DNA of 64,000 nt. Source: a virus. Location: the IMG/VR virus record IMGVR_UViG_3300002461_000777, positions 3,256 to 67,255 of that record; one strand, written 5' to 3'. The first letter of the stretch is position 1, and every line of letters starts with the position of its first letter. Made by a program: the position numbers and the translations under genes. This document shows, in pieces, positions 1 to 17,282 of the stretch. The notes beneath the pieces were generated by a model. That model did no database searches, was not told the DNA's origin, and saw only the letters and a program-made list of their open reading frames with translations.

Positions 1-163
1 CTCCATCGTTAACATCACCATTGATGATCGCAACGAGACTACTCCAGAGTTTGGTGTTAGTACTTTTATAACCACGCCAAGTACACATACCAAAATGTTT
101 ATAAGCTTTGCCACAGGGACACAAATTGTTCTTGGCCGCTTCGAACTCTTGTGAGTAAACCAT
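1..163 (-). CDS. hypothetical protein, runs off window edge
   Basis: ATG at 163 reads MVYSQEFEAAKNNLCPCGK... open to position 1. Confidence 0.5.
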   Translation of the reverse strand, partial: MVYSQEFEAAKNNLCPCGKAYKHFGMCTWRGYKSTNTKLWSSLVAIINGDVNDG

Positions 164-193
164 AATATCTCCTCTATTCAGTCTTCAAACTTT

Positions 194-397
194 TTATTTT
201 CTAATCCCACAGAAATGGTGTTTTCTCATTTGACCTTTATCTATGTGATAGATCCAACCATCTGAGGCTGGAATATAATTTTCATTAATTTCGGCGACTC
301 TTTCTTTGGTGGGTGCACCTTTATGAATCGCGGCATCAGGAATGAATCCCTGAAATCTGCCACCCACCATCATAACACGGACATCGATCTTAGACAT
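194..397 (-). CDS. hypothetical protein
   Basis: 67-aa ORF, co-directional with closely spaced neighbours. Confidence 0.6.
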   Translation of the reverse strand: MSKIDVRVMMVGGRFQGFIPDAAIHKGAPTKERVAEINENYIPASDGWIYHIDKGQMRKHHFCGIRK

Positions 398-404
398 CTT
401 GGAT

Positions 405-806
405 TTATTCCTGTGGGACTTTCTTGATTTTTAGCTTCTTGATCTCGATCTCTTTGATTTCACCACCAGCACCCCAAGCCCAAAATCCTTTCGTCTTGAC
501 AGCTTCATTGATCACATCATCCAATTTACCCTCCAATGTGGCTAATAGAGGTGTATGATGTGCTCCACCCAAATCACAATTCGGGTCTTCACCATAAATG
601 CTCCAGATAGCGTATTTTTGAAGATCATACTTCTTCAGGAGTTTATCTCCATTGTAAGTCGTAAGATATCTTTCTCTGTCCGAGATGGGTTTTTTGGGTC
701 GATTCTCCTCACGGTGTCTTTCGATAATCTCTTGTTCTTCTGGTGTTAATTCTGAGAGGTTCATATTAATACGTACCTGTAGCATTAACGATACCTTCGA
801 TGCCAA
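405..806 (-). CDS. hypothetical protein
   Basis: 133-aa ORF; true start may be internal (MNLSELT). Confidence 0.6.
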   Translation of the reverse strand: MASKVSLMLQVRINMNLSELTPEEQEIIERHREENRPKKPISDRERYLTTYNGDKLLKKYDLQKYAIWSIYGEDPNCDLGGAHHTPLLATLEGKLDDVINEAVKTKGFWAWGAGGEIKEIEIKKLKIKKVPQE

Positions 807-1047
807 GATGAGCTAACAAGATCCGTCGCATAACTTCTGCTTTATGTTCACGGCTTATGACATTCCCATCGGCTTGGTTATCTGCCATCCACCAAAGGTT
901 GAGAATTTGATCCACAGCGATTGAAATATTCGCCTTTATTGCGCTGGCAATCTCTTCGTCCGTAAGCAAAGTTGCTTCTGATTTAGTTGGTTGATTTTTC
1001 ATGTTTGTATCCTTATGCGACTTGATTTTCGATAATCTTGTTGGCAA
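766..1047 (-). CDS. hypothetical protein
   Basis: ORF in minus-strand run; likely start at MKNQPTK. Confidence 0.5.
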   Translation of the reverse strand: MPTRLSKIKSHKDTNMKNQPTKSEATLLTDEEIASAIKANISIAVDQILNLWWMADNQADGNVISREHKAEVMRRILLAHLGIEGIVNATGTY

Positions 1048-2386
1048 CTACTCGGAAAATGACAGTCTGTTTGATTTCCTTGTAGTCTTTGTGGCCCTTG
1101 ACGGTGAACGTGGCATCAACTGTCATACCCTCACCGACATTAGTGTTGGTTGCCTTATCCACGAAATATGAACTGGTGGTCCACTTGAAGGAATTACCTT
1201 CGGCATCAATGAAAATGACAATATTGGCGCTACCGAATTCATTCTCGATCGAAAAGATCTTCTTGACTGTCAGAACGCGGGTGTAGCGAATTTTCTCTTC
1301 ACCGAAATATTCGGACACCTTCTTGACTTCCTGAGTGCTCTCTTTGGCCTCACGCTTTTCATCGGTGTTATTTGGACGATTGATGAAAGAACCCATACCA
1401 GCGACGATCAGCCCAATCTGCCTTGAATTGCATTGCTGCTGGCTCAGAGCCAACTTCAAATTCCATGCAAAATCGGTATTAGTGGTGAGGGTATTGGTGG
1501 CCCAATCGATGCACTTGTCGGCCTTTTCGATATCTTCGGGCTGGTTCTGCCGTCCGTATGCGTCATCAAAATAACGATCTTTGGTGTACAGACCCTTGAA
1601 GACCGTCGATTTTGTAGAACTGTCAAATTGAGCAGACTTGTATGTTCCGTCTACCCGGATGATTCGTGCGGCCAATGCCAAGACATCCTTAACTGAATAA
1701 TACCGGGGTCCTGATCCACCGAAGAAGCTCTCTTCGTCTTCCTCTTCGATGCCGTTCATGATGTCGTAAAGATTCTCAGCGATGGCAGCGATCTTCTTGG
1801 GATCAGTATGACCAGTGAAATCCTTCATGCATGACTTGCCAACTTGGAATAGACGACCATCTTCATGTTCGACCACGTAGGTATCTTTACGTTGACGTGA
1901 TGCCTGACAATGATCGCATGTCGGTTTGGTATATCGCATTTCAAGCGGCATATTCTCAGAACCAGTGCCGGGGATGCGCCGAATGATGTTGCCGCTTTCG
2001 ATATGTTCGAGGACGGCCAACAGCCTCCAACCATTCAATTTGGGGCTTTCACCTTTGACGGTGAAATGAACATTTCGGCGAATGGTAATATCCCAAGTGC
2101 TAACTGACGATTCCCTTGGGTACTGGATCTTGAACTGATCGAGAATGTTCTCTTCAGTCAGTTCCATGGATTCGGGGAGAACGATTGAGCATCTCTTTTT
2201 ATCGGCAATCCTAGTGACCCAACAAATGAAAGATTCGCCGACTTCATTGATTTCAATGCTTCCGTTACCCAACTTTGCACAACGGCGATTGAGCTTGTCG
2301 ATGTTCTTTTTCAGGAATTCGACGTTGTTTTCTGGGACCTTGTAGATTTGGGGATCGGTGCTTTGAATCATTTCTGTCGTGCTCAT
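1013..2386 (-). CDS. conserved phage protein with CxxC/Cys motifs and C-terminal OB-fold-like region
   Basis: 457 aa; CDHC...RKDTY...QVGKSC.KDF motif; TAAAAT box 6 nt before ATG. Confidence 0.7.
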   Translation of the reverse strand: MSTTEMIQSTDPQIYKVPENNVEFLKKNIDKLNRRCAKLGNGSIEINEVGESFICWVTRIADKKRCSIVLPESMELTEENILDQFKIQYPRESSVSTWDITIRRNVHFTVKGESPKLNGWRLLAVLEHIESGNIIRRIPGTGSENMPLEMRYTKPTCDHCQASRQRKDTYVVEHEDGRLFQVGKSCMKDFTGHTDPKKIAAIAENLYDIMNGIEEEDEESFFGGSGPRYYSVKDVLALAARIIRVDGTYKSAQFDSSTKSTVFKGLYTKDRYFDDAYGRQNQPEDIEKADKCIDWATNTLTTNTDFAWNLKLALSQQQCNSRQIGLIVAGMGSFINRPNNTDEKREAKESTQEVKKVSEYFGEEKIRYTRVLTVKKIFSIENEFGSANIVIFIDAEGNSFKWTTSSYFVDKATNTNVGEGMTVDATFTVKGHKDYKEIKQTVIFRVVANKIIENQVA

Positions 2387-2590: not shown

Positions 2591-3385
2591 CTATGTTTTT
2601 GATGCTAAAATGATCGTTTCTCTAACCTCAGTCAAAGTCTCTCCCAACCAATTAAGGCCATTCCAAGTAGCCCTATCATAAGCTTCCGGGTCATCTTCAC
2701 TCAATCCAATCCCCCAGATTTCGTCGAGAGGAGATGCTTCGACCAAAGTGGTGCCAGCTGTGTCTAGAATAATCTGCTTCAAATCAGAATTCTGCGTGAA
2801 CTTAGCCATATTAGCGGTAAAGACAAATATTTTGGCCACCGATTCCCACATTCTCTTATCAAAGTTCTCTACTCTTCTCCCCAACTTTTTGACTTCACGT
2901 GGGTCATTCATTTGATCGGCTTCAAAGATTTCACTAGCTAATTTACCACCGCTGAATAATTGATCTTTACACCACATCATATAGGTTTCAGCGTAATTGA
3001 ATTTTAACCCATGAAGCACAAATGGGGCATTGTACCATTGACTAAATGGCCCATTCCAAAACATTGTGAATTTTTCGTTACTAATCTTATTTTCCATTTT
3101 CTTATCCTTGAATTTATCTCTCATTGTGAATACAAGACCTGTCGGCCTTGCCATTGGTTGAACACCACATAAATTCCAATCATCCATGTGTGGGATCAAT
3201 CTTTTACTTAAATCCCTATGGAATTCTATCCCGATTTTCTTAGCTAACGCGGGAAAATAATGACATAACCGTCTTACATCAAAGTTATCATTTTCAATTC
3301 CGGAGACAATAATATGACGAAAATTTTTCTCATTATCAAGGGCCTCTCCCAACATCCCCATAAAATCGAGATTCATGTTTTCCAT
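2591..3385 (-). CDS. NADAR (YbiA-like) domain protein with N-terminal gp23-like fragment
   Basis: FWNGPFSQW, AETYMM, P.EVKKLGR.V..FD..MW, LVEASP.D.IWGIG, NWLG..L..VR are NADAR motifs; N-terminal LCGVQPMARPTGLVFTMR resembles gp23. Confidence 0.85.
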   Translation of the reverse strand: MENMNLDFMGMLGEALDNEKNFRHIIVSGIENDNFDVRRLCHYFPALAKKIGIEFHRDLSKRLIPHMDDWNLCGVQPMARPTGLVFTMRDKFKDKKMENKISNEKFTMFWNGPFSQWYNAPFVLHGLKFNYAETYMMWCKDQLFSGGKLASEIFEADQMNDPREVKKLGRRVENFDKRMWESVAKIFVFTANMAKFTQNSDLKQIILDTAGTTLVEASPLDEIWGIGLSEDDPEAYDRATWNGLNWLGETLTEVRETIILASKT

Positions 3386-16134: not shown

Positions 16135-16354
16135 TTTGATGATTTGCTTCGTACTCCCCTAATTTCTTTCCACTCACAAAGGTGGTTAAAGCCGTTCCAC
16201 TCCAACCGAATACTTCTTTACCATGTATAGCGATTTTTTCAGTGCTACTACACATCATCACAATACCAACCATAGTGAAGAAGAAAAACATAGCCATAAC
16301 TGCACCACTTAGACTTAAAGCATCAAAGAATTCGTAAAATATTCCCTTTTTCAC
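16097..16354 (-). CDS. small two-TM membrane protein (holin-like)
   Basis: Two hydrophobic segments and charged C-tail; GTG overlaps gp51-frame stop. Confidence 0.5.
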   Translation of the reverse strand: MKKGIFYEFFDALSLSGAVMAMFFFFTMVGIVMMCSSTEKIAIHGKEVFGWSGTALTTFVSGKKLGEYEANHQNAENNKTQKENQ

Positions 16355-16536
16355 TTTTTCGCTTGCCTCTTCTGTTCTTCTTGTACATGACCATTGATCA
16401 TTTCTACGATACTATCACGCACCCATGGCATAAGATGATTTATATCGTCAAATGAATATTTATGTACAAAGGTCAATGCCCAAATCGTCGTTAGATAATG
16501 ACCTAAACTTGAGTATCCAACGAGGAGGCGAAAAAA
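16351..16536 (-). CDS. 51: gp51-like baseplate hub assembly chaperone frame, no own start, reached by -1 frameshift
   Basis: Frame reads FFRLLVGYSSLGHYLTTIWALTFVHKYSFDDINHLMPWVRDSIVEMINGHVQEEQKRQAKK; HKYS...I..LMPW.R is the T4-like gp51 motif; TGA four codons upstream in this frame. Confidence 0.8.
   Translation of the reverse strand, partial: FFRLLVGYSSLGHYLTTIWALTFVHKYSFDDINHLMPWVRDSIVEMINGHVQEEQKRQAKK
16479..16536 (-). promoter_or_regulatory. -1 programmed ribosomal frameshift signal (T TTT TTC plus H-type pseudoknot)
   Basis: Heptamer 16536-16530 in gp26 frame; 6-nt spacer; stem1 TCGTTGGAT/ATCTAACGA; stem2 CTCAAGT/ATTTGGG. Confidence 0.75.
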
Positions 16537-17282
16537 CTTGAAAGCCCTTCAATCTTAATATCCTGTTTATTTCCACATTTTGGACATTTGATTTCTACGA
16601 CAGGAGCGATTTCCGGGATGGTCTCAAAGAAATGTTTGATCTGGTTAAATTGCTTGATGGTGAGTTTCTTGAGAAGCTCCAGAATTTCTTCTTTGGGGAC
16701 ATCTTCATATACCGTCTCTGAGTCAAAAACGTTTTCCACACATTCGGCAATCAATTCAAAAGTAGCTTCTGTCTCAGTTTTTGGTGTTTTATTCATTCTC
16801 TTGAGAATGTCGAGTGAGGGATACTTCATTAGAATTCCAACATCCGGTGTTAACCTGATGGTTGGGTCGTGTGAAGGGTCCTTGGTTACTTCGACAGTAT
16901 CAAGATCGAGGAAATGTTTAACTTCGGTCTTGCACATTTCACCATTCTCTGAAGGAGCTTGGCACTGGTAATTTAATTCCACCATATTACCCACGCCTTT
17001 GGAACGGCATTTGATGAAGAAATACTGTAAATCGTAGAGAGGCAATGAAGTTACGTTAATATTTGTCGGAGAGACAATGCAGTTGGTAGCTATTTGACGC
17101 AGAGCATGAAGAATTTCTTCATCATTGTCACTGGTTGATGCCCCTTCAAGAGCCATCATCAAGATTTGCTCTTCTTCCACCATATAAGGTCGATAGATGA
17201 TTTCTTGATTATTAGATGGAAGACTTAATTTAAAAGTCGGAACATTGATTTTCTCATAGGTTAATTGCTTGATCGATGCCAT
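16503..17282 (-). CDS. 26: baseplate hub subunit / tail assembly chaperone (T4 gp26-like)
   Basis: LPSNNQEIIYRPYMVEEE.IL, RSKGVG, MKYPS, KHFFETIP, CPKCG, IEGLSSFF. Confidence 0.9.
   Translation of the reverse strand: MASIKQLTYEKINVPTFKLSLPSNNQEIIYRPYMVEEEQILMMALEGASTSDNDEEILHALRQIATNCIVSPTNINVTSLPLYDLQYFFIKCRSKGVGNMVELNYQCQAPSENGEMCKTEVKHFLDLDTVEVTKDPSHDPTIRLTPDVGILMKYPSLDILKRMNKTPKTETEATFELIAECVENVFDSETVYEDVPKEEILELLKKLTIKQFNQIKHFFETIPEIAPVVEIKCPKCGNKQDIKIEGLSSFFASSLDTQV

Follow-up and report, generated by a model that had tools for sequence, protein, structure and literature searches.

One gene for two tail chaperones: a predicted -1 frameshift linking gp26 to a gp51-like extension in a freshwater T4-like phage

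How could a T4-like phage make two related tail chaperones, counterparts of the products of T4 genes 26 and 51, from a single gene? The question is raised by a locus in a 64,000-nucleotide stretch of viral DNA (IMG/VR virus record IMGVR_UViG_3300002461_000777, positions 3,256 to 67,255), which we call the window. Here a gp26 gene is overlapped at its 3' end by a second frame that resembles gp51 and has no obvious start of its own. An initial annotation had proposed that a programmed -1 frameshift produces both gp26 and a gp26-gp51 fusion, following the logic of the lambda G and GT proteins. We find strong comparative support for this proposal, together with a predicted fold of the tail assembly chaperone (TAC) type. 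In our reading, gp26 is very probably the TAC-N gene of a T4-like phage, in which a -1 slip at the heptamer T_TTT_TTC would yield gp26 on the one hand and the gp26-gp51 fusion on the other. Judged from sequence signals and their conservation, the frameshift site is real, well conserved and almost certainly functional.

Two reading frames at the 3' end of gp26

All features described here lie on the minus strand of the window. In the zero frame, the gp26 gene (17282-16503) encodes a protein of 259 amino acids (aa) that ends in ...IEGLSSFFASSLDTQV* at a TAG codon (16505-16503). Profile searches match this protein along its full length to PF12322 (E 7.8e-54, residues 15-252) and also to phrog_150 (E 1.1e-56). 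Its identity to the gp26 of any isolate is at most 39%, and the phage is an uncultured, divergent freshwater member of the T4-like group. The source record, an IMG/VR fragment of 69.9 kb with a completeness of about 40%, contains a single PF12322 gene. Searches for related loci came back empty when the phage collection was queried by blastn, when viral contigs were queried with a single protein and when metagenome contigs were queried with a two-sequence alignment; NCBIfam held no match for gp26, for the -1 extension or for the small 85-aa open reading frame (ORF) that follows them.

The heptamer T_TTT_TTC occupies positions 16536-16530, where it falls in the X_XXY_YYZ register of the gp26 frame (agT TTT TTC in codon phase). 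Upstream of it, the -1 frame is closed by a TGA (16551-16549), from which it is separated by four sense codons; the frame then reads FFRLLVGYSSLGHYLTTIWALTFVHKYSFDDINHLMPWVR..., and it runs on past the FF dipeptide as RLLVGYSSLGHYLTTIWALTFVHKYSFDDINHLMPWVR... until a second TGA (16353-16351). The first ATG of the frame encodes the M of the LMPW motif, so that no ATG precedes the conserved part. On each of these points, namely the heptamer and its register, the closing TGA four codons upstream and the missing ATG, direct reading of the minus strand agrees with the initial annotation.

The same is true of the identity of the -1 frame, which had been assigned to gp51. In fact, its 65 residues match phrog_634 (gp51, baseplate hub assembly catalyst) with an E value of 4e-13 from the heptamer onward. 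Since this match covers residues 4-64, the homology to gp51 begins at the heptamer, 22 codons 5' of the TTG at 16476-16474, which is the sole canonical start that the ORF list offers in the -1 frame ahead of the conserved motif. Initiation at this TTG would drop 22 residues that are homologous to members of the gp51 family and to T4 gp51 itself. A tblastn search with the -1 frame matched 461 phage records, over residues 1-65 or 4-65. Compared directly with T4 gp51 by BLASTP, the -1 frame gave no match, and the relation appears with profiles only.

How would the two frames be used? Most ribosomes would pass T_TTT_TTC in the zero frame and terminate eight codons later, releasing the 259-aa gp26. 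A fraction of them would slip back by one base while two Phe tRNAs sit on UUU UUC (16535-16530); these tRNAs would re-pair on U_UUU_UU, and reading would go on in the -1 frame with R-L-L-V.... The gp51-like TAC-C extension entered in this way (16536-16351) comprises 61 codons, which begin with the heptamer's two Phe codons, end with a K and are followed by the TGA. The predicted transframe product of 310 aa would thus consist of gp26 residues 1-251 plus 59 more and would be a TAC-NC, the one-gene equivalent of T4 gp51.

The slippery heptamer among relatives, with T4 as a natural control

We surveyed 85 junctions, made up of the window, four cyanophage isolates and 80 IMG/VR loci collected with a gp26 alignment. 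Their predicted fusion proteins are diverse, with a median pairwise identity of 49%, and yet T_TTT_TTN stands in register at the gp26 3' end in all 85 (last base C in 75, T in 8 and A in 2). Adding 11 further phage loci, Vibrio phage K364 and T4 brings the total to 98 junctions, and the in-register heptamer is kept at 96 of them, the exceptions being K364 and T4; the conservation across T4-like genomes that the initial annotation had suggested as a check is thus borne out. Nine more isolates carry the heptamer: DLP6, phiN3, Milchi, C48C1, P-SSM2, Mosig, D482, 65.2 and ACP17. Their hosts include Stenotrophomonas (DLP6, GC-rich), Sinorhizobium (phiN3), Pseudomonas (Milchi), Pelagibacter (Mosig), Vibrio (D482), Aeromonas (65.2) and Acidovorax (ACP17). 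The two close relatives of the window, with gp26 identities of 83% and 99%, have it as well.

Several features of these junctions concern the nucleotides themselves. The codon before the heptamer is AGT, TCT, AAT, GCT, GGT or GAT, so that the residue varies while the codon ends in T throughout, against a background of 40% for third-position T in gp26. At two loci the gp26 C-terminus reads ...SFLE*, with T_TTT_TTA retained and followed by GA, so that neither the heptamer nor the Arg codon of the -1 frame is lost. Because these two loci retain T_TTT_TTA, we take the nucleotides to be under selection, and not the FF dipeptide alone. The last base of the heptamer can be accounted for by the first -1 codon, which is CGN or AGA (Arg), TGG (Trp) or TAY (Tyr). 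In some relatives the slip site is a run of seven or eight T.

The frames around the heptamer follow a common plan across the 85 junctions. The -1 frame is closed 0-21 codons 5' of the heptamer, and after it continues as FF(R/W/Y/Q/L)... into gp51-like sequence. In 29 of the 85 this frame has no ATG before codon 18, or none whatever. The zero frame goes on for eight codons after the heptamer in the window and for one codon in most relatives. We also observed that the zero frame of Pelagibacter phage Mosig likewise runs eight codons past the heptamer (FFVLPSLTTA*; locus L096, 1170-1217), in what is a second, unrelated lineage.

T4 itself solves the problem with two genes. Its genes 26 and 51 are separate, divergently transcribed paralogues, and the heptamer is absent. 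Residues 1-201 of T4 gp51 (249 aa) match PF12322 with an E value of 3.9e-52, and its residues 147-246 match phrog_634; by sequence, the protein is a gp26 paralogue that carries the C-terminal extension in frame. We built a hidden Markov model (HMM) of the fusion from 82 predicted transframe products, that of the window not among them. T4 gp51 matches this model in a single hit (HMM positions 131-283) that spans the junction at about position 240. At the junction T4 ...DVFKLLVNPDEIF... aligns over ...SSFFRLLVGYSSL... of the window, with VFKLLV in T4 facing FFRLLV. The zero-frame product of the window corresponds to T4 gp26, with which it shares PF12322, and its predicted transframe product is colinear with T4 gp51, junction included. 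T4 gp26 (208 aa) ends in ...GLKEFFELL*, and its FF is coded by TTC TTT after GAG (NC_000866, locus L085, 2803-2850, minus strand), with no slippery run, as would be expected if a separate gene 51 makes the slip needless. About 1375 Straboviridae records have gp51 in frame as T4 does; they come from phages of Escherichia, Klebsiella, Shigella, Acinetobacter, Aeromonas and related hosts.

Flanking signals and the chaperone fold

What might help the ribosome to slip? Downstream of the heptamer comes a spacer of 6 nucleotides (nt), GCCTCC (16529-16524), which is the typical spacing for a stimulator of -1 frameshifting. It leads into a stem-loop (16523-16488) that RNAfold returns as the minimum free energy (MFE) structure, with a 10-bp stem (16523-16514 with 16497-16488, one G.U pair) and a 16-nt loop in which the gp26 stop codon sits. 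The first stem of the initial annotation is therefore real and has the spacer that was noted, and it is one pair longer than had been claimed. Both arms of stem 1 are unchanged in the relative that shares 83% gp26 identity, and six differences fall in the spacer, the loop and the 3' flank; with this one informative relative, we observe conservation without covariation.

Looking more broadly, we scanned 81 unique loci with a sliding 45-nt window for MFE. The global minimum fell in the windows that start 5-10 nt after the start of the heptamer, with a mean of -8.7 kcal/mol versus about -4.8 kcal/mol. Relative to shuffled sequences, the mean z just 3' of the heptamer was -1.62, with 52% of loci below -1.5, as compared with -0.96 to +0.26 at five control positions. 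Since the folding scan peaks there and distant relatives share no structure, hairpins recur just 3' of the heptamer, though in a shifting register. In the window, the 10-bp hairpin starting 6 nt past the heptamer probably helps the slip.

The initial annotation had gone further and drawn an H-type pseudoknot, in which the loop of stem 1 pairs with a 3' arm at 16485-16479. The complementarity of this second stem (16513-16507 with 16485-16479) does exist and amounts to seven pairs, two of them G.U. Shuffled sequences, however, show at least seven contiguous pairs linking the loop to the following 30 nt in 27-38% of cases. The linker between the 3' arms of the two stems is 2 nt long (16487-16486), facing a stem 1 of 9-10 bp, and a 2-nt loop is too short to cross a stem of that length in a classical H-type pseudoknot. 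The relative with 83% gp26 identity retains six of the seven stem 2 pairs, with one G.U changed to A-U, and it is a single informative relative. With a second stem no better than chance and a linker that cannot span the first, we regard the pseudoknot as unsupported; a simple hairpin is the better-supported stimulator, and a plausible one.

Upstream of the heptamer, a candidate stimulator of another kind is the weak Shine-Dalgarno (SD)-like sequence GAAGGG (16550-16545), located 8 nt 5' of the slip site. In the relatives, the Glu codon of a conserved LEG motif lies 12-14 nt 5' of the heptamer and is GAG in 62 of 82 cases (76%), against a GAG share of 31% elsewhere in gp26. This codon choice creates an SD-like GAGG 9 nt 5' of the heptamer, at a spacing like that of dnaX; the GAAGGG of the window is a weaker form of it. 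By analogy, the SD-like element possibly aids the slip.

The comparison with E. coli dnaX can be extended to a possible tripartite signal, in which a homopolymeric heptamer is preceded at 9 nt by the SD-like GAGG and followed after 5-6 nt by a hairpin. It has its limits, as the frameshift product is the shorter one in dnaX and the longer one here, and the SD-like element of the window is weak, its role being argued by analogy. It is conceivable, although we are doubtful, that T4-like phages carry a dnaX-like three-part cassette, in which the U-run heptamer sits between an SD-like GAGG, placed about 9 nt before it, and a fast-evolving hairpin that begins 5-6 nt after it, and whose parts are traded off from lineage to lineage. 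In the clade of the window, as in Mosig, the near-adjacent stop seen in most relatives would then have given way to an extended zero-frame tail combined with a strong 10-bp stem. As a separate observation, a JGI record labels a gp26 homologue (P0006) 'DNA polymerase III gamma/tau subunit', probably by mis-transfer; the label is an odd one, dnaX being the textbook case of a bacterial gene with a -1 frameshift.

Is gp26 built like a tail assembly chaperone? We modelled it with AlphaFold2 from a 43-sequence alignment, reaching a predicted local distance difference test (pLDDT) score of 87.4; the zero-frame tail (residues 253-259) is disordered in the model. Top-ranked PDB chains from Foldseek were re-scored with VIA-align. 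The N-terminal domain (residues 1-97) matched the HK97 tail assembly chaperone 2ob9_A with a Z of 7.5, which is below 8, over 94 of 107 residues. Next came two structures related to it, 3fgx (Z 7.1) and the prophage protein YqbN (3klu, Z 6.1), and then, at Z 4.8, the function-unknown protein 5ir0_B, with the best unrelated match below them at Z 3.4. The model thus supports a TAC-like fold for the N-domain. Other methods were silent: Foldseek alone found nothing in the PDB at E <=0.001, a profile search of PDB sequences gave a chance-level hit only, hhalign of the 43-sequence profile against lambda gpG returned a probability of 0.2%, and none of the TAC Pfam families matched at E up to 1.

The resemblance of the modelled N-domain to the HK97 chaperone nevertheless supports the lambda G/GT reading. 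So do the chaperone role, the location of gp26 ahead of a tape-measure-like gene, and the two predicted forms with their common N-domain. As in lambda, two products are predicted from overlapping frames, the first ORF having a heptamer close to its 3' end. The differences are that no sequence homology to lambda gpG could be detected and that gp26 has about double the length, with an additional C-terminal half that contains a zinc ribbon. A conserved -1 frameshift in tail assembly genes was reportedly described by Xu, Hendrix and Duda (Mol Cell 2004). The lambda heptamer, G_GGA_AAG, is not known to have a stimulatory structure. If the analogy holds, the task of the shared N-domain would be to hold the downstream-encoded tape-measure-like protein, and that of the C-terminal extension to recruit another tail component. 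Both gp26 and gp51 are listed as hub assembly chaperones, and gp51 is absent from the particle (Leiman et al. 2010, PMC3004832).

Competing explanations, neighbouring genes and meaning

Some of our observations count against this account. We infer the slip and its efficiency from sequence alone. Taken by itself, stem 1 (-10.5 kcal/mol, z -1.76) is mildly unusual, with 11 of 200 shuffles folding as well, and a consensus structure computed with RNAalifold on 80 ungapped junctions contained 0 pairs. Many relatives have a tail tube gene directly upstream of gp26; in the window the upstream neighbour is another gene, and the gp19-family tail tube gene of the record lies elsewhere (G000:C1:69019-69345). 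Vibrio phage K364 represents a lineage that has lost the heptamer: its gp26 ends in ...TLFA*, coded CTT TTT GCG TAA (locus L100, OZ196357.1, 1060-1255), and its gp51-like extension starts at its own ATG, which overlaps the gp26 stop (TAATG). From this layout, the extension can apparently function, or at least be made, unfused. Relatives with their own ATG and no heptamer are what the initial annotation had named as evidence against it, and among the 98 junctions this combination is confined to the K364 lineage, T4 having two separate genes and the 96 others keeping the heptamer. Finally, the genes of the window's phage have no clear SD sequences, which makes the missing SD at TTG 16476 uninformative as to whether translation begins there.

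K364 and the rival TTG bring us to the idea that gp51 is a separate small protein with its own start, at TTG 16476 in the window and at an ATG a few codons past the heptamer in many relatives, the heptamer being a by-product of a conserved FF. An ATG does lie 3 or 6 codons after the FF in 49 of the 85 junctions, such ORFs are annotated as gp51 in GenBank, K364 manages with its own ATG, and the lack of an SD before TTG 16476 says nothing against initiation at that codon. This explanation is nevertheless quite unlikely, for the resemblance to gp51 family members, T4 gp51 included, starts at FFR, upstream of every candidate start, and no ATG comes before codon 18 in 29 of 85. Protein constraint also fails to explain the wobble T of the preceding codon, or TTT TTA where FF has become FL, and T4 gp26 keeps its FF with the T run gone. 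Could the polymerase slip instead of the ribosome? If RNA polymerase added one U on the T6 run, exactly the -1 frame would result and the long form would be translated conventionally from the edited mRNA. The slip site is in fact a homopolymer, extended to T7 or T8 in some relatives, and the listed sequencing runs that hold the locus sequence are DNA contigs, with none from RNA. Efficient slippage in bacteria, however, typically needs runs of 8-9 or more, so T6 is short; the last base is C in 75 of 85 junctions, where slippage would favour a longer T run; and the folding peak lies 5-10 nt downstream, as suits a stimulator that acts on the ribosome. The fixed codon register adds weak evidence in the same direction, weak because the conserved FF dipeptide fixes the register too. 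We consider transcriptional slippage unlikely.

There is hardly any room for a third possibility, in which a sequencing indel or a recent frameshift mutation has split an in-frame gene of the T4 gp51 type. Homopolymer runs are prone to sequencing error, but two independent studies, one of activated carbon (2015) and one of drinking water (2024), yielded contigs in which the same 401 nt recur with zero indels. As these studies are unrelated, the two-frame arrangement is not an assembly error, and a sequencing artefact is excluded. Recent decay fares no better against an arrangement found at 96 of 98 divergent junctions. Programmed ribosomal frameshifting at T_TTT_TTC is thus the explanation that we retain.

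The neighbouring genes add some context. A 927-aa protein encoded downstream (16134-13351) is tape-measure-like in position, in size and in its Gly-rich hydrophobic core; towards its C-terminus, residues 629-840 match a VgrG3-like peptidoglycan-hydrolase domain (PF21277, E 6.5e-36), and its similarity to T4 gp29 is weak (E 0.06). Between it and gp26 lies the 85-aa hydrophobic, putative membrane ORF (16354-16097), for which Pfam, PHROGs and NCBIfam hold no family. Its GTG start overlaps the TGA of the -1 frame (16353-16351) as GTGA, and this overlap suggests that the small membrane protein is translationally coupled to the long chaperone form only. A complex predicted between the tail-tube protein (L094:1480-2016:-) and the -1 extension scored 0.00, with a partner pLDDT below 50. 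Next to the gp19-family tail tube gene we also noticed a 467-aa ORF (L094, G000:C1:67519-69949, 2-1402, minus strand) that runs off the end of the record. It contains repeated helix-turn-helix-like modules and is maybe an insertion of the homing-endonuclease type.

How much of this is new? Frameshifting is said to appear conserved in several T4-like groups in the work of Vladimirov, Gautam and Davidson (Virology 2022), in which TAC-N and TAC-NC reportedly come from two genes, 26 and 51, in T4's own group. The gene family is the one found in the window. As cited in later articles, the 2022 study covers short and long TAC forms in T4-like phages (PMC10885494) and poly-T -1 frameshift signals in their TAC-N genes (PMC12846349); the first of these, the PRFect article, paraphrases it as saying that some T4-like phages carry a short gene plus a longer fusion gene in place of frameshifting (PMC10885494). 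So far as these accounts convey it, the published system consists of a short TAC-N and a long TAC-NC made through a poly-T -1 frameshift, with two genes in T4. The phenomenon is therefore already published, apparently from bioinformatics alone, and the novelty implied by the initial annotation falls away. As the mechanism is not new, the window adds a further member to a published gene family, in this case a divergent freshwater one. The value of our analysis lies in corroboration and annotation, not in discovery.

Annotation does need attention. One GenBank record names gp51 'tape measure protein assembly chaperone', and gp51 is unannotated in the public records of S-BM3, S-CAM1, Aeromonas phage 65.2 and Acidovorax phage ACP17. 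Other public records start gp51 at whichever ATG comes after the heptamer, and in none of the public records examined are the frames joined. Annotation pipelines should join the gp26 and gp51 frames, which now appear as two ORFs or with gp51 omitted.

For T4-like phages as a whole, the 98 junctions confirm that most members outside the T4 group encode both hub/tape-measure chaperones by what would be one frameshifted gene. If the three-part cassette is true, and if the 2022 paper holds no analysis of stimulators, the cassette would be a new and testable account of how the ratio of short to long chaperone is set in these phages. Finally, we envision that the frameshift of most lineages, set beside the two-gene solution of T4, would provide a clean natural experiment on why the ratio of short to long chaperone has to be fixed in phages.

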